DNA of 64,000 nt from Acidobacteriota bacterium (GTDB lineage: Bacteria > Acidobacteriota > UBA6911 > RPQK01 > JAJDTT01). The notes beneath the pieces are model-generated. The model was not told the DNA's origin. It was given only the letters and a program-made list of their open reading frames with translations, and ran no database searches. Of the stretch, positions 22,225-34,336 are shown in pieces (position 1 is the first letter of the stretch; every line of letters starts with the position of its first letter). A program made the position numbers and the translations under genes. Location of the stretch: the NCBI GenBank assembly GCA_965263035.1, contig OZ253580.1, forward strand, positions 3,424,001 to 3,488,000, given 5' to 3'.

Positions 22225-24141
22225 ATGCTCCAGGTTCCAACAATGATGGCTTTGGCCGGCATCCTGCTACTGGCGCAGGCTGCCGGCGGTCGCACCGGAA
22301 CTCAAGTCGAGCCGGAGCAGGTCCTTCGGCGGGCGCTGGAACTCCAGCAGGCCGACGATGTGGACGGCGCCATCGAGCAGTACCGGGCCTTGCTGGCCCA
22401 ATACCCGGACCATGCGGAGGCTCGCGTCAAACTGGGCAATGCCTACTCTTCGATCGGCCGCTATCCGGATGCCGCCGTCCAATACCAGCAGGCTCTACAC
22501 AAGGATGGTCTCAGGGATCCGACCGGTCTCGACTACTCCTTGGCTTGGGTCTATTTTCGGATGGCCGAATACGAAAAGGCCAAGCCGATCCTGGACCGGG
22601 TCGTCGCCGCCGGCTCCAAGGGCAGGGAAGCCGTTCAACTGCTGGCGTCCTGTTATTTCAATTTGGGCGAGTGGAGGAAGGTGATCGGCCTTTTGTCTCC
22701 GCTTGAAGCGGGACTGTCCGAGTCGCCCGCCCTGACCTATCTGTTGGGCGTCGCGCTGGAAGAAGACGGTCAGAACGAAAGGGGAACGCCACTCGTAGAG
22801 ACCGCCCTGAAAGGTACCGATTGGCCGACGGCACGGTTCCGGTCCGAGATGCGCTCGGATTGGCTCAATCGTTTGGCTCGTCGAGGAAGGGACCTGATGG
22901 AGAGCGGGGACTACCCTGGGGCCGCCAGGCACTTGGAAAGAGCCCTCTCGCTCGACCCGAGGGTCCCGTCGTTGAACGTCACTTACGGGAAGTTGCTCCG
23001 GCTCATGAACCGGCACGACGTTGCGGATCGAGCCTTCCTGAAAGAGCTCGAAGTCAATCCCGACGATTACGATGCCAATCTGTTTCACGGCATCTATCTC
23101 TTCGAGAACGAACAGAAATATGAGGAGGCGCTGGCCTGCTTCGAACGGGCGTTGCGCACGCGTCCGGGCGACGCCGATGCACGGTTTCAAATGGGACTCG
23201 TCTACAACTCCTCCAACCGGATTGAAGAGGCCATTCAAACCGTGGAGGGCGTGGTGGCGGAGAACCCCAATTTCCTGGAAGGCCATGTCACTCTCGCCGG
23301 TCTGTACTTTCGGTTGGGAAAAGAAGAGGAAGCCGAACGCCACCGGGTCGCCGCCGAGCGGCTTCGAACCAGCAGGGATGGGCAGCACCTGATCAAGCTG
23401 GGACAACTCTCGCAGGCCTCCGAGCTGTTCGAGCGCCAGAAGAAGGCGGACCCGTCGGACCCCGAGCCTTACTTCCATGAGGGTCTGGCTCTTTGGCAAG
23501 AGCAGAACTGGCAGGACGCCGCCGCCGAGTTCAAGGAGGCCGTTCGATTGGGTAACGGCAATCTCAAGTACACCATCTACTATTCGAATGCGCTGGCCCA
23601 GTCGGGTCAGCATGAATTGGCGCGGACCATCGTGGAGTCCCTGCATCGGGATCGTTGGCGTCAACTGGACTCCCGTCAGGCCTGGATTCTGGGAGACACC
23701 TGGTTTCAGATCGGAGACCATGATCAGGTTCTGCAGGTCCTGGATTTCCTGTCTGGCCAGGACCCGAAGAATGCGCAGGTCGATCTGATGCGAGGCCAGA
23801 TCCTTCTCCGTAAAGGGAGCTACGAACGGGCAAGGGCGTCCGCTGAAGGGAGCATCAGGAAACAGCCGGACAACAGCCTCGCCCACGCTCTGTTGGGAAC
23901 AGCCCGGTATCTACTTGGGGACCTGCCTGGGGCCAAAGAAGCCTTTCTCAAAGCCGTGGAACAGGATCCCGGCAACCCGGATCATCTGCGCAAGCTGGGT
24001 GCGCTCTACCTGGAGTTGGGAGAGTACGAACCGGCAATCACGGCTCTTGAGCGGGCCAAGCCGGCCGCTGCCGAAATTCCCAGTATCCACCGTCTTCTCG
24101 AAAGGGCGTACCAGGCAAGGGAGACCGGGTCCAAGAAGTAA
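22225..24141 (+). CDS. Exported tetratricopeptide repeat protein
   Basis: Signal peptide and multiple TPRs; TGC-TAAGAT 6 nt before the ATG. Confidence 0.88.
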   Translation: MLQVPTMMALAGILLLAQAAGGRTGTQVEPEQVLRRALELQQADDVDGAIEQYRALLAQYPDHAEARVKLGNAYSSIGRYPDAAVQYQQALHKDGLRDPTGLDYSLAWVYFRMAEYEKAKPILDRVVAAGSKGREAVQLLASCYFNLGEWRKVIGLLSPLEAGLSESPALTYLLGVALEEDGQNERGTPLVETALKGTDWPTARFRSEMRSDWLNRLARRGRDLMESGDYPGAARHLERALSLDPRVPSLNVTYGKLLRLMNRHDVADRAFLKELEVNPDDYDANLFHGIYLFENEQKYEEALACFERALRTRPGDADARFQMGLVYNSSNRIEEAIQTVEGVVAENPNFLEGHVTLAGLYFRLGKEEEAERHRVAAERLRTSRDGQHLIKLGQLSQASELFERQKKADPSDPEPYFHEGLALWQEQNWQDAAAEFKEAVRLGNGNLKYTIYYSNALAQSGQHELARTIVESLHRDRWRQLDSRQAWILGDTWFQIGDHDQVLQVLDFLSGQDPKNAQVDLMRGQILLRKGSYERARASAEGSIRKQPDNSLAHALLGTARYLLGDLPGAKEAFLKAVEQDPGNPDHLRKLGALYLELGEYEPAITALERAKPAAAEIPSIHRLLERAYQARETGSKK

Positions 24142-24164: not shown

Positions 24165-25865
24165 CTAATCTCGTTCCTCGACCCTGAGAATCCGGTCGGG
24201 TGCGACCTCTTTAAGTATCTGCAGCTTGCCCGAAGGCCAGCGGATCTCCAGCGATTCGATGTCCTCTTCCTTCCCCAGGCCGAAGTGAACCCGTCTGTCC
24301 GGTGAGGACATGAGGCCCACCGTTGAGGAAACATGGTTCAGGAGGGTCCTGCCCGAGGCAGTCCGCAGCAAGACAGTGGCTCCGATCGCATCCCGATTGC
24401 TGGCCCGGCCGCGAAGGTCGACCATCAGCCAGTGGTTCCCGTTGTCTCCCGAATTTTGCAGAATCCTCGGATTTTCGTTGAGTGAAGTGACGACAATATC
24501 CAGGAATCCGTCATCATTCAGATCTCCGAAAGAGGAACCGCGCTGGTATGCAATACGCAGAAAATCCTGTCCCAGATTCGTCGAGACGTCGGTAAAGGTC
24601 GTCCCGTCCAGGTTTCGCAGCATGGTGTCGTGCTGGGCGGTATCGGGGCTCAGGTATTCCAGGCCCCCGTTGGCTGAGTAGATGTCTTTCCAGCCATCGT
24701 TGTCAAAATCGATAAATCCGCTGCCCCAGCCCGTGAACTTCCGGCTCAGCTTGGCCACCTGGGTCCGGTAGCTGACATATTCGAAGTAGCGGCCGCCCCG
24801 GTTCTGGAAGAGCCCGTGGAGTTGGTTCTTGAGGTCGTTGTAGAAGATGTCGACCTGCCCGTCGTTGTTGAAGTCCTTGGCGTCGGCGCCCATCCCCGAG
24901 CCGGCCACCGCGGAACCCTTGTAGGCGACGCCGAGGAAAAAAGAGGCTTCCCGAAAGCTGCCGTTCCCCTGATTCAGGTAGAGAAAGTTCTGCACCGTGT
25001 CGTTGGCGACGAACACATCCGGACGGCCGTCCTGATTGAAATCGGCAATTCCCAGTCCCATGCCTTTGCCCAGCGCATTGGTGAGGCCCGCCTTCTGAGA
25101 GACGTCGGTGAATCTGCCGCCGCCCAGATTCCGGTAGAGCGTGTTGGAAACACTGACGACGGTCTTCGGACTGCAGTAGAACGGAGTACCGTCGGGAAAC
25201 AGACAGGGCTTGTCGGTCTGGGCATTCCAGTAGGTGTACTGGGAGACGAACAGGTCCAGCAGGGAATCCTGGTCGAAATCGAGCCAGGCGGCGTCGACGC
25301 TCAACAGATCGGCCGGTTTGTCGTCGAGGCCCGATCCGGCCGTCACGTCGGTGAAAGTGCCGTCGCCGTTGTTTCGATACAGGGCGTTGGGTCCGGCGTT
25401 TCCGATGAACAGGTCGCGGTCGCCGTCATTGTCGTAATCGCCGACAGTCACGCCGAAACAGTAGCCCAGACCGACTCCGGTCAATCCGGCTTTCCGCGTG
25501 ACGTCCTCGAAACTGCCGTTTCCCAAGTTGCGCAAGAGGCAGTTGTGAAACGAACGGTCCGTCTTCTCGACTTCCGGCAGCTTGGCGCCGTTGGTCAGGA
25601 AGATGTCCTGCCTGCCGTCGCGATCGTAATCGAAGATGGCCACGCCGCCGCACATGGGCTGGGGAAAATATTTGCGGCCAGCGAAGCTGTTATTGGATTG
25701 GTAGCGGATATTCGATCTTGGTGCGATGTCGGTGAATTGAACGGACCCCGCGTCCTCGCCGCGCGTGGCGTTTTCGGATTGGGCAGGGAGGACTCCCGTG
25801 ACTGGAAGAGCCAACACCGGCAGGAGCACGGAACTCCAAACCAGCGTCCATCCCATGGGATGCAT
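24165..25865 (-). CDS. CRTAC1 family protein (FG-GAP + ASPIC/UnbV)
   Basis: PMCGGVAIFDYDRDG, GDYDNDGDRD, RDAIGA, HFGLG, IRWPSG; signal peptide. Confidence 0.92.
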   Translation of the reverse strand: MHPMGWTLVWSSVLLPVLALPVTGVLPAQSENATRGEDAGSVQFTDIAPRSNIRYQSNNSFAGRKYFPQPMCGGVAIFDYDRDGRQDIFLTNGAKLPEVEKTDRSFHNCLLRNLGNGSFEDVTRKAGLTGVGLGYCFGVTVGDYDNDGDRDLFIGNAGPNALYRNNGDGTFTDVTAGSGLDDKPADLLSVDAAWLDFDQDSLLDLFVSQYTYWNAQTDKPCLFPDGTPFYCSPKTVVSVSNTLYRNLGGGRFTDVSQKAGLTNALGKGMGLGIADFNQDGRPDVFVANDTVQNFLYLNQGNGSFREASFFLGVAYKGSAVAGSGMGADAKDFNNDGQVDIFYNDLKNQLHGLFQNRGGRYFEYVSYRTQVAKLSRKFTGWGSGFIDFDNDGWKDIYSANGGLEYLSPDTAQHDTMLRNLDGTTFTDVSTNLGQDFLRIAYQRGSSFGDLNDDGFLDIVVTSLNENPRILQNSGDNGNHWLMVDLRGRASNRDAIGATVLLRTASGRTLLNHVSSTVGLMSSPDRRVHFGLGKEEDIESLEIRWPSGKLQILKEVAPDRILRVEERD

Positions 25866-25956: not shown

Positions 25957-27549
25957 TCACGGCTCTTGTTGCCAGATCTGGACCAGCTCCCACTCCACTC
26001 CTTCCCGGGCCAGGCCGAAGTTTCCCAGGATGATGTCGGTGCGGCCGTCGCCGTCGATGTCACCCAACTCGAGAGTCACGTAGTCGCAAGGAATTGCGGC
26101 CAGGGAGCGGGGTTGGAAGGATCCGGGCCGGGTCTGTTCGTACCAGACCACACCCGAAAGATTGTATTGACGGCGTCGTTCCTCGGTCAGATTGGGGAGG
26201 TAGGAAGCTGCAACCAGGTCGATATCTCCATCCCCGTCGAGGTCCCCTGCTTCAGCCCGGAGGGCGCCGTAGTAGACGTCCACCCGATGATGGGCAAAGG
26301 AAAGCTCGCCCCTGTTCTCCAGCCAGGACAGCCCGTGATAGGGCCTCATCTGTGCGCTGTCGTCCAGGGTGTCTCCGTGGGTGAAGATGACGTCCAAGTC
26401 CCCGTCCTGATCCAGATCGATGACCTCGATTCCGCTTGAACCCCAGTGCGGATGAGGAGCCTTGAACAAGTCCTTCTTTTCGAAGACACCGGATCCCCGA
26501 TTGAGGAAAGCAACGACCGCTTCATGTTCCTGGGACAGCAGGGCGATGAAGTCGGGCCGGCCGTCTCGGTCGAGGTCCACGACGGGAATGTGGATCGTCC
26601 CGGCCCGGTCATCCAATTTCACGGATCTGAAATCGTCCGCTCCGAGTCTCGAGGCCTTCTCCGGATGGGATCCGTTCTCCAGATAGTGGATGCCACCCAC
26701 TGTCCTCCAGCCGAACTCGGCTACGATGACATCCAGGTCCCGGTCGCCGTCAAAATCTGCCGCCTGGACGTCAGCGACCCTTCCGACCCCGGTGAGCAAC
26801 CGGTGAACCTCGAACTCGCGCCTCCCGGTCCGCCGGAGCCAGGAAACGGATCCCGTTCGTTGGTCAGTGGGCTTGGGCCATCCGAGTTCGGCAACCAGCA
26901 AGTCGATCCTGCCGTCCCGGTCCAAGTCGACAACCTCGGCATGGCATGGATTGTTGAGTTGGACTATGGGCTGAAGGTCCATCCGGCCGTCGTCGGGATC
27001 CGTCCAGCTCACCCATCCGGAGATCATGTCGCTGACCACCAGTTCGGGGCCCTTCAGGTCTGAAAACAGCTCCAGAAGGCGGACATTGGCTGCCCCGGGC
27101 TGGAGACCGCGAACCTTCTTGCCCGGCAGCAGCCGGCGGTTGAACCGAAGCTCCGGACCCCCGCGCTTCGCCGTCCAGGGCGGCGTCTCCAATTCGGCAG
27201 GTGCCTTCGACCGGAAGTAGGAAGCCACCTGCAAGGCGTCGATATCCCAGATCGGTTTGTTGTGAGATTGGAGGAGAGAGAGATTGGCCAGTCTGAACTT
27301 TCTCTGAATCAGACCGGGCCATTCCTGCTTGGGAAGGATCCCCGGAGGGGTCCATTCGTGGCACTGGGTACAGGCCTTCCGGATCTTTGTTTCCAGGGCC
27401 TCCTCATTCGTCAACTGGAGGCTGGAGTGTGAGGAAAGTGAGGGGAGTCCGGGTGAGCGCCCGCCGGCGACGGATCGGCCGGGCAAAGACAAGAAGACAA
27501 TCAGACACAGAACCGAGAGACAGCCGACGGACCGACCTCGTATCTTCAT
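25957..27549 (-). CDS. FG-GAP/VCBS repeat protein with N-terminal c-type heme motif
   Basis: ACTQCHEWTPP (CxxCH) after a signal peptide; repeats DLDRDGRID, DFDGDRDLD, DLDQDGDLD. Start ATG27549 follows TGC-TACCAT. Confidence 0.85.
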   Translation of the reverse strand: MKIRGRSVGCLSVLCLIVFLSLPGRSVAGGRSPGLPSLSSHSSLQLTNEEALETKIRKACTQCHEWTPPGILPKQEWPGLIQRKFRLANLSLLQSHNKPIWDIDALQVASYFRSKAPAELETPPWTAKRGGPELRFNRRLLPGKKVRGLQPGAANVRLLELFSDLKGPELVVSDMISGWVSWTDPDDGRMDLQPIVQLNNPCHAEVVDLDRDGRIDLLVAELGWPKPTDQRTGSVSWLRRTGRREFEVHRLLTGVGRVADVQAADFDGDRDLDVIVAEFGWRTVGGIHYLENGSHPEKASRLGADDFRSVKLDDRAGTIHIPVVDLDRDGRPDFIALLSQEHEAVVAFLNRGSGVFEKKDLFKAPHPHWGSSGIEVIDLDQDGDLDVIFTHGDTLDDSAQMRPYHGLSWLENRGELSFAHHRVDVYYGALRAEAGDLDGDGDIDLVAASYLPNLTEERRRQYNLSGVVWYEQTRPGSFQPRSLAAIPCDYVTLELGDIDGDGRTDIILGNFGLAREGVEWELVQIWQQEP

Positions 27550-27805
27550 GTTCGAAATGGTAGCAGCCCGTGGTGAAAGTCCCACGAGCACCGAGACCGT
27601 TCCTGCGCCCGCCGGACCAGGCGCAACGGAGGGAGCATGCCGGGAGTATGCGACCGAGTCGCAACGCGGTCCGCGCACGATGCAGGGACGGTCGAATGCC
27701 GTGACGACTTTTGCCACGGGCTGCTAACACCAGCCTGACTTCCACCGGGGCGTAGTCCTCGCCATCGAACTTCGGGGCAGTGGCCGTTTTTCTTCCTGAC
27801 CCGAA

Positions 27806-30186: not shown

Positions 30187-30246
30187 TGTATACAAAAATA
30201 TATATAGTTGTAAAGTATTGACGTTATGTCGGTGGCGTATCATAAT
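30187..30246 (+). promoter_or_regulatory. Sigma70 promoter (probably leaderless) with upstream TGTATACA palindrome
   Basis: TTGACG (30218-23), 17 bp, CATAAT (30241-46), ATG at 30254; TGTATACA at 30187-94 in an AT-rich tract. Confidence 0.7.
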
Positions 30247-30253
30247 CCCAACT

Positions 30254-33200
30254 ATGCTCAGGAAACGCCGGGGCGCTCGCAACCGGCAGCAGAAGAGAAA
30301 GCGAGTTCCACCGAAGTCTGAGAGAAGGCCACCGGGCGGCCGCAAGACCAGCCCTCAGGTCGCTTCGGAGAAACGGTCGCCGGAGCGAAGGTCCAAGAGT
30401 TTCCACCTGGGACTGGCGGTCCTCGGAGCCGTTCTGGCAGTCGGGGCCCTCTATTTTTTCAAAGATCGAAGTGAGCCCTTCCCCGGCGGGATCTGGTCAC
30501 GGGAGTACACGATCCCTCCCAGGAATCTTCCGCTGGGCGACGTCGAGAAAGCCTTGAGGAAAGTTCCGGAAGGGGCTGACGAATGGGATTCCGAAGAGGT
30601 GGACGTCGAAATCGAGAACAGGCTCGAGGAGTTCGCCAGTGCGCTCAAGGGTGAATCGGGTGCCGATTCTTTTCCGCCCGGGCTGCTCAGCTCCGACTTC
30701 ATGGGGACACCGCTGGAGCCGGCGGCCACCCGGAAGGTCAAGGCTGAAGAGGGATTGGAGATCTTCCGAGGCGATCCGGACAGCGAGGAGCGAGTCACCG
30801 CCGCGACGTTTCCCTCAGAGATCGGAAAGCTACTGCAGGCGGCGGAAAAGATCGAAGATGTGAAATTCAAGGTGACGAGGATCGAATCGCCCCGGCTCCC
30901 GGGATCGACCGTCGTCAGCGACGTCATCTACACCATTCTGGGTCAAGGCAAGGATGGCGAATCCTTGCAGTGGAAGGGGGACTGGCGGCTCAACTGGCAA
31001 AAGGACCACGTGGGCCGTTGGAAACTCTCGCGGCTGAAAGTGCTGTCCACGTCGCGGGGACGGAGTGTTCGAGACGCCTTCACGGAGGTCACGCAGCGGG
31101 CGCTGGGGAAGAACAGCTCCTACCGGCAACAACTGCTGCTGGGAGTCGAGTATTGGCAGGGAATCCTCGACTATGTCGCCGGAATGGATATCTATGGTCA
31201 CAACGGCGTCTCGATTGCCGATATCGACGACGACGGCGATGAGGATTTCCATGTCTCTCAGCCGGCAGGCCTACCCAATCTGCTGTTTCGCAACCAGGGA
31301 GACGGCACCTTTCTGGACGTCACCGAAAAGGCGGGAGTCGACGTCCTGGACAATACGGCCTCCAGTTATTTTGCCGACGTGGACAACGACGGCGATCCGG
31401 ACCTGATCCTCGTTGGAACCCGGTCTCTGCTGTTTCACAACGACGGTTCGGGCCGGTTCAGTCTGGTCTCCGATTCCGGGTTCGAGGCGATAGATGACAC
31501 CCAAGGCGGCAAAGTATCGGCCGCCGTGGCCGACTACGACCTGGACGGACATCTGGACGTTTATATCTGCTCATACGCCTTCTGGCGGGGGCAGGAAGAA
31601 TTGGGCAATTATCCCTTTCCATACCATGACGCCAACAATGGCGCTCCCAACATCCTCTTGCGGAACCAGGGGAACGGGTCGTTCCGAGACGTCACCCGGC
31701 GATCCGGAATGAACCGGAACAATCTGCGTTACAGCTTTGCCGCGGCTTGGGGGGATTACGACGGCGACCGGTATCCGGACCTGTACGTCGCCAACGACTT
31801 CGGCCGTAACAACCTCTATCGGAACAACGGTGACGGCACCTTTACGGATGTGGCTCGAGAGGCGGGAGTGGAGGATATCGGAGCGGGGATGAGCGCGGCT
31901 TGGGAGGATTATGACAACGACGGCCGCCTGGACCTCTACGTCGGGAACATGTGGTCGTCGGCGGGTCAGCGGATCACCTCACTACAGCAGTTTCAGACCC
32001 AGCGGCCGCAAGCGGAGATCCAGAGCTATCGACGCCATGCCAAGGGCAACTCCTTGTTCGCGAATCGAGGTGACGGAACGTTTGAGGAAGTTGGCGCACA
32101 AGCGGATGTCGAGTTGGGCCGGTGGGCCTGGAGCAGCGATTTCTTCGACTTCGACAATGACGGCCATGAAGACCTGTACGTCGTGAACGGCTTCATCACC
32201 AACGAAGACACGAAGGATCTCTGAAGCTTCCTCTGGCGGCAGGTCGTGTCGCAATCGCCATCGGAAGCCGCAGTTGCTTCCGCCCCGCCTGGAGCGCGCA
32301 TCGGCTCCGATTACCGGAACGGATGGGATGCGGTGAACCTGCTGATCCGGCAAGGTGGATCTCTGAGTTCACGCGAGACCAACAATTTCTATATCAACTG
32401 CGGCGACGGAACTTTTGCCGACGCCTCGGGCATCACGGGACTGGACTTCCCCGAAGACGGGCGAGCCTTCGCCGTCGGCGATCTCGACCAGGACGGCGAC
32501 CTGGATCTCATTCTGAAGAATCGAAATTCGCCGCAGCTCAGGCTGTTGCGGAATCAGGCCGGGAGTGGCTACAACGCGGCCAGTTTCGATCTCAGGGGCA
32601 CGCGCAGCAACCGGGACGCGGTGGGAGCGAAAATCACCATCGAGACCGATGCGGGTTCCAGGTCGAAATTCGTCAAGATCGGATCGGGTTTCCTGTCGCA
32701 GAGCTCCCGCCGGGTCTGGTTCGGCCTCGGGAACCAACCGGGGATCCGGCGGGTCAAGATCGAATGGCCCAGCGGGGAAGTCCAGACCTTTCGGGATCTT
32801 CCGGTAAACCACCGGATTGTGATCGTCGAAGGGGTGGACAGGACGGAAACCATTCCTTTTCGGTCTCCCCAACAGGACGACGACAGGCCGGACGACGCGA
32901 GGGAAGCGCCGGTTGGTGATCCTCCCCCGTACAGCGGAACCTGGCTGCTGGAAAAACTTGCCGCCCCCAAGTTCCGGTTGCCGAGCGTGAATGGAAGGCA
33001 TCATGACCTGGCCAGGTACAAGGGCCGCCGGTTGTTGTTGAACTTCTGGGCGACCTGGTGCCCGCCGTGCCGGGAAGAGCTGCGCGACCTGCGATCCCAT
33101 CGGGAGGATCTGGAAGACCTCGGCGCCACGATTCTGGCGATCTCCGTCGATGATCCTTCAGACCACGCGAAGGTACGAGAGTATGCCCGGCAGGAAGAGC

Positions 33201-34336
33201 TTCCGTTCCCGATCCTGCTTGCCGACGACGGCGTCATCGCTGCGTATAACCTGGTCAATCGCTTCCTTTTTGAAAAGATACGCGACTTGGCCGTACCCAC
33301 TTCGATGCTTCTGGATCGGGACGGGAACATCATCAAGATCTACCGGGGCAGAGTTCCCGCTCGGCAGATCATTCGGGACCTTCAGGACACCCCTCGATCT
33401 GAAGAAGAGCTGGTCCGGGCGGCCTTTCCGTTTCCCGGTCAAACCTTCGGCATGGAATTCGTGCGAGACTACACTTTGATTGCGGATGCGTTCCGAAGGG
33501 CCGGACTCGACGACCAGGCGGCGGTTTACTACCAGCACCAGCTCCTGGACCAGGGCCACGACACGCCCCAATCGTGGAACAGCCTTGGGCTCCTCTATGA
33601 ACGTGATGGTAGGTTGGACCAGGCTCGTGAGGCCTACGAAAAGGCCCTCCGTCTGAATCCCGACTACGCGGACAGCCACAACAATCTCGGCGCAATTCAC
33701 TTGAGAACGGGGGAGATCGACAAGGCCATAGACAGCTACCGAACCGCCGGCCGACTGGCTCCCTGGTCAGCCGATGTCCAGAACAACCTCGGACATGTGC
33801 TGCTGGAAAAAGGTCTGCGCGCTGAGGCCGTACGTGCGTACCAGCGGGCCCATGAAATCGACGGTCAGGCTCCTCAGCCCCTGGTCAACCTCGGCAACGC
33901 CTATCTTCAGATGAAGCGCTTTCAAGAAGCGATCTCGGCATACGGCAAGGTCTTGCAGATGCGGCCGGATTCCGCGGACGTCCACCACAACTTGGGTTTC
34001 GCATTTTTGGAGTCAGGGCGGCTCGACGACGCTTTGACGTCGTTCGACAGTGCGCTTCGGCTTCGGCCTCAATACGCAAGTGCCTATAACAACAAGGGGA
34101 CGGTCTTCTTGCGAAAGGGCAGGTTTGAAGAGGCGGGACGTGCGTTCAAGGGGGCGATCCAGGTCGACTCCGATTTCAGGCCCGCCTACATCAACCTTTC
34201 CATGACGCACCTTCGAGCAAACGAAATTGAAAAAGCCGTGGACGTGCTCCGCCGGCTGCTCAAGGTGAATCCGGACGATCCGATGGCGCTGGACCTGTTG
34301 GCACAGATCGAGCAAGTGAAGTCGTCGGCGCCGTAG
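30254..34336 (+). CDS. Membrane-anchored CRTAC1/ASPIC-UnbV + thioredoxin-like (CPPC) + TPR protein with in-frame TGA; candidate selenoprotein (~1360 aa)
   Basis: ORFs 30218-32224 and 32246-34336 share a frame: ...NEDTKDL-TGA-SFLWRQVVSQSP. FG-GAP repeats continue on both sides, followed by the ASPIC domain, LLNFWATWCPPCREEL and TPRs. SECIS-like hairpin follows the TGA. Confidence 0.75.
32225..32268 (+). promoter_or_regulatory. Candidate bacterial SECIS element
   Basis: GCTTCC(32226-31)/GGAAGC(32263-68), TGGCG(32234-38)/CGCCA(32256-60); alternative apical stem GCGGCA/TGTCGC with loop GGTCG; GCAGGTC at +15 from the TGA. Confidence 0.65.

Follow-up and report, generated by a model that had tools for sequence, protein, structure and literature searches.

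Within a 64,000-nucleotide (nt) stretch of the genome of an Acidobacteriota bacterium (NCBI GenBank assembly GCA_965263035.1, contig OZ253580.1, positions 3,424,001 to 3,488,000; this whole stretch is referred to here as the window), two open reading frames (ORFs; 30218-32224, 668 aa, and 32246-34336, 696 aa) lie in the same frame and are joined by a single TGA at 32222-32224. We conclude that positions 30254-34336 represent one gene that crosses this TGA, that the two ORFs belong together with a translation exception, and that the UGA is very probably (with a probability of roughly 0.88) decoded as selenocysteine (Sec) by SelB and tRNA-Sec through a 6-bp hairpin with a GGUCG loop. Read through from 30218, the frame has 1372 codons with one non-standard step, U669 (residue numbers follow this printed frame). 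Insertion of selenium itself we infer from the recoding signals and their conservation. The data support an uncharacterised bacterial selenoprotein family with a selenocysteine insertion sequence (SECIS) inside the ORF, an unusual pattern of residue replacement and a coupled CxxC motif. That the two ORFs are one frame had been proposed in a preliminary description made from the letters of the window, and both the sequence and the ORF coordinates agree with this proposal; all sequence-based checks reported below came out in favor of Sec.

Conservation of the in-frame TGA

The codon aligned with U669 was investigated in three surveys, i.e., (i) 40 related genomes plus the window's own genome, with 150 rows listed, (ii) 301 genomes across the phylum, and (iii) a scan of 185,579 species, with one genome per species, for a 27-letter IUPAC pattern consisting of the TGA and part of the surrounding motif. 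In the first survey, 39 of the 150 listed rows contained one TGA inside the match, with identities from 95% down to 34%, and none of these 39 stop-containing rows had TAA or TAG. Among 37 aligned loci from relatives, the TGA was located under U669 in 31; of the other six, two were unaligned there and four were ordinary CRTAC1-like paralogues, in which the position is occupied by Leu or Glu and the surrounding sequence is different. The motif around the TGA is D[LT]-U-SF[FL]WR[QH]VV, and the type to which the window's protein belongs has the strictly conserved form D-L-U-S-F-[FL]-W-R-Q-V-V.

The second survey found a match in 56 of the 301 genomes, with the TGA form in 41 and the stop-free form in 15. 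The 67 rows listed (49 with one TGA and 18 stop-free) included no TAA or TAG at this position, and TGA rows extended down to 37-40% identity with the window's protein. In the third survey, at least 119 stretches matched the pattern, for which far fewer than one chance match would be expected by our own arithmetic. The matches listed represented 80 loci (81 matches), distributed among Planctomycetota (35), Acidobacteriota (23) and Verrucomicrobiota (21), with one unassigned. Of the 81 listed matches, 70 have an open frame of 200 codons or more upstream and 71 have one downstream; most shorter open frames end at locus ends. The preliminary description had named the aligned codon in homologues as a check, and the three surveys agree on a conserved TGA. 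Two unpublished genomes, G016 (L020, L053) and G182 (L064), each add one row to the locus, CxxC and hairpin counts, and a third (G063) enters only the 301-genome SelB tally; no claim depends on any unpublished genome alone.

Contigs from two public DNA runs (two studies) and two metatranscriptome runs (a third study) also cover the TGA, and no difference was listed at 32222-32224 in the contigs of these four runs, which bears on the sequencing error that the preliminary description had wished to see excluded. At 31800-31950 and 32216-32252, the short pieces of contigs and the "joints" derive from homologues of other organisms. Metatranscriptome contigs of other organisms were also observed to match only the 31 nt from 32222 to 32252 (the TGA plus the hairpin), with one difference, and to diverge on both sides. 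Judging from such matches, the recoding signal is more conserved in DNA than the flanking coding sequence.

The homologues represent two families, i.e., family 1 (the window's type; approx. 1360 residues with tetratricopeptide repeats [TPRs]) and family 2 (approx. 930-980 residues without TPRs). The window's own genome also holds a family-2 gene (G000:C1:5511786-5514590, i.e., L030:787-3591; 934 codons), which shows 40% identity to the window's protein over the match at C1:5513007-5514047. This copy carries the motif KDT-U-SFFWRHVV, FG-GAP, ASPIC and Redoxin (WCGPC) domains and no TPR, and its hairpin has 8 bp (GGCGCCAC-GUC-GUGGCGUC). As had been predicted, such genes are split in public databases, where at least 105 of the 120 entries related to the paralogous family stop precisely in front of the TGA.

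Two of the homologous loci show additional features near their recoding sites. A Pirellulaceae metagenome-assembled genome record (JBFILF010000009.1, 4828-4854; L102) has a CU dipeptide (GDC-U-SFFWRQVV) and a hairpin with one broken pair. Another locus (L037, G029:C3) has a further in-frame TGA, in the context DRP-U-CKKC, downstream of the thioredoxin motif in the read-through frame; this second TGA may lie beyond the true end of the gene or may represent a second recoding site.

SECIS-type hairpin

Both hairpins named in the preliminary description exist in the sequence downstream of the TGA, and it is the one mentioned there as an alternative apical stem, GCGGCA-GGUCG-UGUCGC (6 bp, starting 11 nt after the UGA), that is conserved. 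The 44-nt fold (GCUUCC/GGAAGC plus UGGCG/CGCCA) did not hold as a conserved element. This fold is the minimum free energy (MFE) structure of the window's 60 nt (-19 kcal/mol); it is no better than those of shuffled sequences (z = -0.44; 67 of 200 shuffles were as good), and even congeneric species (rows L011-L018 of alignment A1) have lost its outer stem GCUUCC/GGAAGC. Across the 28 sequences of A1, 87.8% of the cells pair in the conserved hairpin, as compared to 31-47% in a control where the 3' partner was slid by 1-3 columns (except for 75.5% at -3). All six pairs are formed in 24 of 28 distinct TGA sequences versus 1 of 15 stop-free homologues, which have nearly the same peptide (SFFWRQVV); the protein sequence alone thus does not force the helix. 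The mean MFE was -10.0 kcal/mol for TGA sequences and -5.5 kcal/mol for stop-free sequences. In the loop, G28 is invariant and U29 is present in at least 90% of the A1 rows.

The covariation that had been proposed as a check is most evident for pair 24-34, which links the Arg codon, at its silent third position, to position 1 of the seventh codon downstream of the UGA. This pair is formed in 92 of 93 distinct TGA sequences, using five pair types (GU 39, AU 24, CG 16, GC 12 and UA 1), and in 2 of 15 stop-free sequences. The choice of Arg codon follows the downstream residue, i.e., CGC occurs with Ala (GCN), CGG or CGA with Ser (UCG; with one AGG exception), CGG with Pro (CCN) and CGU with Thr (ACG). 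The pattern used in the third survey fixed most of the 5' arm and the loop, but neither column of pair 24-34.

Overall, the hairpin fits bacterial SECIS criteria, i.e., location 3' of the UGA, spacing, an early G in the loop and covariation. The comparison with Escherichia coli made in the preliminary description was verified, as GCAGGTC begins 16 nt after the TGA in K-12 fdhF and the identical GCAGGTC begins at 15 nt in the window's gene. An Rfam scan of 32150-32350 returned only a chance-level snoRNA match (E = 1.2).

Selenocysteine machinery

The window's own genome (one contig, 97% complete) encodes SelA (444 bits), SelB (wing domain, 74.9 bits), SelD (297.5 bits) and tRNA-Sec, so that the machinery whose presence the preliminary description had made a point of checking was found. 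Among the 41 TGA-bearing genomes of the 301-genome sample, the SelB wing domain was detected in 36; in the remaining five, SelA (E ≤ 7e-116) was found together with a tRNA-Sec that exceeds the Rfam cut-off. A formate-dehydrogenase-alpha-like gene of the window's own genome (C1:1829565-1831610) is free of in-frame stops, and its score is below the cut-off of the family. A genome-wide screen for an in-frame TGA plus hairpin yielded 72 candidates and recovered the family-2 paralogue (at C1:5513493); as these candidates are mostly noise and the screen missed the window's own gene, it is uninformative on the remaining selenoproteome.

Predicted structure and domain organization

We modeled residues 290-1070, which span the TGA, with AlphaFold2 (using an alignment of 97 rows); the model has a mean predicted local distance difference test score (pLDDT) of 91.7 and a predicted template modeling score (pTM) of 0.92. 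Propeller strands occupy model residues 42-479. Blade strands precede the TGA, another blade and the ASPIC domain follow it, and Pfam FG-GAP_3 matches were found on both sides. As had been proposed, the TGA lies inside the propeller and neither half alone is predicted to form a complete one; the model closes the propeller only with both halves. U669 corresponds to model residue 380, the first residue of a DSSP helix (380-386) in an insert before the last blade. The placement of Sec in the propeller thus stood, but its assignment to a plain loop did not. The CPPC motif (model residues 659-662) is also located at the start of a helix (660-671). For redox-active Cys or Sec, the nucleophile usually sits at a helix N-terminus.

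The matches to FG-GAP (PF13517) and UnbV/ASPIC (PF07593) both exceed the Pfam cut-offs and occur in the propeller-then-ASPIC order of the CRTAC1/ASPIC-UnbV family. In a Foldseek search, the best solved match was murine CRTAC1 (9etn_A; E = 2e-28, template modeling [TM] score 0.68 on the target, 597 columns), and the thioredoxin part matched ResA (2f9s_A and 1st9_A; TM scores of 0.88-0.89 on the target) and TlpA (1jfu_B). The N-terminal tail of 49 residues before the transmembrane helix contains 20 Arg/Lys and 3 Asp/Glu; under the positive-inside rule, this suggests an N-in anchor with the remainder of the protein outside the cytoplasm.

Residue replacement and coupling to the CxxC motif

To assess which residues replace Sec, stop-free proteins were counted from the 120 best matches of each search. 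At the U column, 120 stop-free family-1 proteins carry Ala (58), Ser (35), Gly (13), Asn (9), Glu (4) and Cys (1), and 14 stop-free family-2 proteins carry Ser (5), Cys (2), Leu (2), Arg (2), Val (1), Glu (1) and Ala (1). The CxxC motif downstream is present in 30 of 31 TGA loci from the relatives, in 15 of 15 in a second set (7 of which repeat earlier places) and in 61 of the 81 listed matches of the pattern scan, where most misses end at locus ends. Among stop-free sequences, it is intact in 8 of 120 family-1 proteins and in 2 of 15 genome loci; both family-2 Cys forms keep it.

In a quick IQ-TREE analysis of 97 rows and 569 columns, with the U column taken out and the root set on family 2 plus L036, all 84 stop-free rows fell into one clade (Shimodaira-Hasegawa approximate likelihood ratio test support of 94) nested among TGA lineages. 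Basal members of this clade keep the CxxC motif and include the one Cys form, and a crown of 64 rows is without CxxC. The simplest reading of this tree, which depends on the root and has several unresolved forks, is an ancestral Sec with a single loss in family 1, after which the CxxC motif decayed. Stop-free family-1 proteins (P0003, P0009, P0011 and others) were also observed to start with a twin-arginine-like SRRxFLK signal. By this sequence comparison, the mode of export or anchoring differs between the forms, with a twin-arginine-like signal in those without Sec and an Arg/Lys-rich tail plus membrane helix in the window's protein.

Proposed function and alternative explanations

The product of approx. 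1360 residues would consist of an Arg/Lys-rich cytoplasmic tail, a membrane helix, an unassigned N-terminal region, the propeller with its UnbV/ASPIC domain, the thioredoxin domain and the TPR array. We propose that Sec would be the reactive residue of an extracytoplasmic scaffold and would be paired with the fused CxxC motif. Oxidised Sec (as a selenenic acid or a selenenylsulfide) might be resolved by the fused TlpA/ResA-like domain, which might in turn be re-reduced by a membrane electron carrier of the DsbD/CcdA type. A candidate for this carrier is encoded at C1:1482811-1483452, which represents the sole DsbD_TM (CcdA/DsbD-type) match in the genome. This match is located approx. 5.4 kb from the SelB wing match (C1:1477250-1477369), on the opposite strand. 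Reduction of Sec in cis by the WCPPC domain is suggested solely by the joint retention and joint loss of Sec and CxxC, and we give this redox pair an even chance. Taken as a whole, a Sec-containing protein is in all likelihood the best explanation of the data, with this mechanism as its less certain part. We further propose, tentatively and as a distinct possibility only, a selenoenzyme whose Sec performs chemistry that Cys cannot replace, since lineages that lose Sec almost never take Cys; they take Ala, Ser or Gly, and then the CxxC motif decays while the scaffold is kept.

One alternative accepts the insertion of Sec but not its partnership with the fused CxxC motif. Sec could be a metal or chalcogen ligand, or a peroxidatic residue that another reductant recycles; alternatively, the propeller or the TPR array could recruit a different client for the thioredoxin domain. 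TlpA/ResA-type domains normally serve separate clients, and mixed-disulfide complexes of TlpA with ScoI and with CoxB were among the fold matches; the propeller also carries calcium-type loops (Dx[DN]xDG), and a few TGA loci have no CxxC motif. On the other hand, two paralogous families and three phyla have kept Sec along with CxxC, CxxC decay follows the loss of Sec, and the two family-2 Cys forms retain the motif. We consider an unpartnered Sec rather unlikely. A complex prediction for the propeller plus ASPIC part of a Cys form (P0122) with the thioredoxin domain gave "no answer" (score of 0.00) and speaks neither for nor against docking.

In a second alternative, the UGA would represent a conserved regulated stop that yields a 668-residue product (with or without a separate C-terminal product), or would be read through independently of SelB with an ordinary residue. 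Hairpins after stop codons can promote read-through, a GTG is located 8 codons downstream of the TGA, and the Ala, Ser, Gly, Asn or Glu of stop-free homologues indicates that the protein can fold without Sec or Cys. However, the stop is always TGA (39/39 and 49/49 listed rows), as would be expected for Sec and unlike plain termination, the spacing and GGUC loop of the hairpin match the SECIS of E. coli fdhF, and Sec machinery is found in every TGA-bearing genome examined (by the SelB wing or by SelA plus tRNA-Sec). A regulated stop would also break a propeller for whose closure the model needs both halves, and no GGAGG was found by eye within the 21 nt (AGCTTCCTCTGGCGGCAGGTC) before GTG32246, in agreement with the earlier remark that this start lacks a convincing ribosome-binding site. 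Finally, retention of the CxxC motif tracks retention of the TGA, which is sensible if a chalcogen is located at the TGA. Together, these observations make a regulated stop or ordinary read-through very improbable. An error of sequencing or assembly, or a recent inactivating mutation (pseudogene), which a lone in-frame stop in a large gene would resemble if taken by itself, is excluded for practical purposes: 41 genomes of the phylum and 80 listed loci of three phyla have this codon in the aligned column, it recurs in contigs of four public runs from three studies, and both halves show strong protein-level conservation.

Several observations weigh against decoding of the UGA as Sec or against its pairing with the CxxC motif. 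Combined counts for the 134 stop-free homologues (Ala 59, Ser 40, Gly 13, Asn 9, Glu 5 and a few others) include Cys in only three (P0013, P0122 and P0162), and the position tolerates many residues once Sec is lost. The preliminary description had expected a conserved TGA and/or Cys, of which the TGA was borne out and Cys hardly at all. It had also regarded a TGA unique to this assembly, with Trp, Arg, Ser or Gly in the relatives, as evidence against Sec; the second part is borne out in that the stop-free relatives mostly carry Ala, Ser, Gly, Asn or Glu and not Cys, but uniqueness is clearly false, so that this objection to Sec falls away. A relay between Sec and CxxC is further challenged by six long-frame TGA loci (L085, L109, L124, L141, L148 and L153) in which a regular expression found no WxxxCxxC. 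With regard to the hairpin, covariation comes mainly from one pair, with the other five pairs hardly varying, and the shuffle and rank tests overstate the signal because the sequences are related. The pattern scan is not independent evidence for the columns of the 5' arm and loop, as the pattern fixed them. Moreover, two distant TGA homologues deviate, with L036 showing its own shifted hairpin (GCGUGC-GGUC-GCACGC) and L035 showing no clear hairpin. SelB was found in 249 of the 301 sampled genomes, including 11 of the 15 whose only form is stop-free; Sec machinery is therefore necessary but not discriminating. The contigs from RNA libraries are no proof of transcription.

Comparison with known systems

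The window's gene resembles E. coli fdhF in having an in-frame UGA followed by a short hairpin, and systems of the fdhF type have selA, selB, selC and selD, as does the window's own genome. The proteins belong to unrelated families, however, and Sec in the window's protein is not beside a metal cofactor. While the fdhF SECIS stem carries a bulged U, the stem described here is a plain 6-bp helix without it. Murine CRTAC1 (9etn) has the FG-GAP propeller and UnbV/ASPIC domain in common with the window's protein, with only 20% identity, and the bacterial protein adds the membrane anchor, the thioredoxin domain and the TPRs. The helix motif USFFWRxVV is specific to the Sec subfamily; ordinary paralogues have ...TEIELDFLNNVVS... 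there. We know of no Sec in CRTAC1, and our literature searches found no report of one.

The thioredoxin domain shares with TlpA and ResA the fold, a WCxxC motif at the start of a helix and matches to the AhpC-TSA and Redoxin Pfam models, but TlpA and ResA are free proteins and the domain described here is fused behind a propeller. It stayed below the NCBIfam cut-offs for the ResA subfamily (75.1 vs. 170 bits; NF047696 and NF002854 tested), the TlpA equivalog (54.8 vs. 230 bits) and PrxQ/BCP (43.6 vs. 260 bits and 38.1 vs. 140 bits). The domain thus has the fold and motif of TlpA/ResA and is not a member of the named NCBIfam families; its WCPPC motif is thioredoxin-like, in contrast to the peroxiredoxin motif. 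NF041054 (ResA-like WAxxUGC motif-containing) gave a weak match (50.6 bits vs. a cut-off of 300 bits). Judged by its name, this family represents a selenoprotein with Sec inside the thioredoxin active-site motif, whereas the window's protein has an ordinary WCPPC with Sec 279 residues upstream, in the propeller.

Prior knowledge and significance

To our knowledge, bacterial CRTAC1/ASPIC-like proteins have no known activity. No description of a Sec propeller family was found in the main text of the literature searched (supplements of catalogue papers might list it), and NCBIfam 20.0 has no model for it. A word search found neither FG-GAP nor ASPIC in the 2022 prokaryotic selenoprotein review, the deep-Sep paper and Haft's 2022 preprint, and the main text of Kim et al. 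2016 (PLoS One, PMC4807772) mentions selenoproteins 23 times and neither UnbV nor FG-GAP. Passages of the deep-Sep paper (PMC12013277) indicate that Cys homologues now appear to exist for every known selenoprotein and that its filter requires two Cys-containing matches among the top ten; as Cys homologues are rare here, a filter of this type would probably discard the Sec propeller family.

If our interpretation is correct, this would be a large and widespread selenoprotein family, present in three phyla and with two copies in the window's own genome, that is largely invisible to pipelines requiring Sec/Cys pairs. Sec at the start of a helix together with a coupled CxxC motif would also provide a first functional clue for bacterial CRTAC1/ASPIC-like proteins, pointing to extracytoplasmic redox chemistry. 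If, in addition, Cys cannot replace Sec, the family would represent a new kind of extracytoplasmic membrane-anchored redox enzyme built on a CRTAC1-like propeller, in two paralogous forms. As the window's own genome is without a Sec-type formate dehydrogenase, it is tempting to hypothesize that the family could be a main reason for keeping the Sec machinery in Acidobacteriota, Planctomycetota and Verrucomicrobiota.

Features and genomic neighborhood

Table 1. Positions in the window of the probable Sec-propeller gene and of the features assigned to it
Feature	Position	Strand	Description
Whole gene	30254..34336	+	1360 codons; likely start ATG 30254, stop 34334-34336
Transmembrane helix	30401..30460	+	Residues 62-81; single hydrophobic segment FHLGLAVLGAVLAVGALYFF; from sequence and composition
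FG-GAP beta-propeller, CRTAC1-like, with the TGA inside	31208..32521	+	Pfam FG-GAP_3 (PF13517), E = 2.5e-47
UGA codon 669, probably read as selenocysteine	32222..32224	+	First residue of helix USFLWRQ; same column in all TGA-bearing homologues
SECIS-type hairpin GCGGCA / loop GGUCG / UGUCGC	32236..32252	+	Conservation, covariation, loss in stop-free homologues
UnbV/ASPIC domain	32618..32818	+	Residues 801-867; Pfam PF07593, E = 4.4e-18
TlpA/ResA-like thioredoxin-fold domain	32960..33358	+	Residues 915-1047; AhpC-TSA, E = 2.5e-24; Redoxin, E = 3.5e-20
WCPPC motif of the thioredoxin domain	CPPC 33059-33070	+	CPPC at helix start
C-terminal TPR array	33473..34318	+	Residues approx. 1086 to 1367; TPR_1, E = 1e-47, and many other TPR models

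No redox partner was found among the neighbors of the gene. The propeller query gave 154 matches in the genome, which indicates a very large paralogous propeller expansion. Two FG-GAP/ASPIC paralogues without an in-frame TGA are located just upstream on the reverse strand (24165-25865 and 25957-27717), and a 638-residue TPR protein is encoded nearby, also upstream, on the forward strand (22225-24141).

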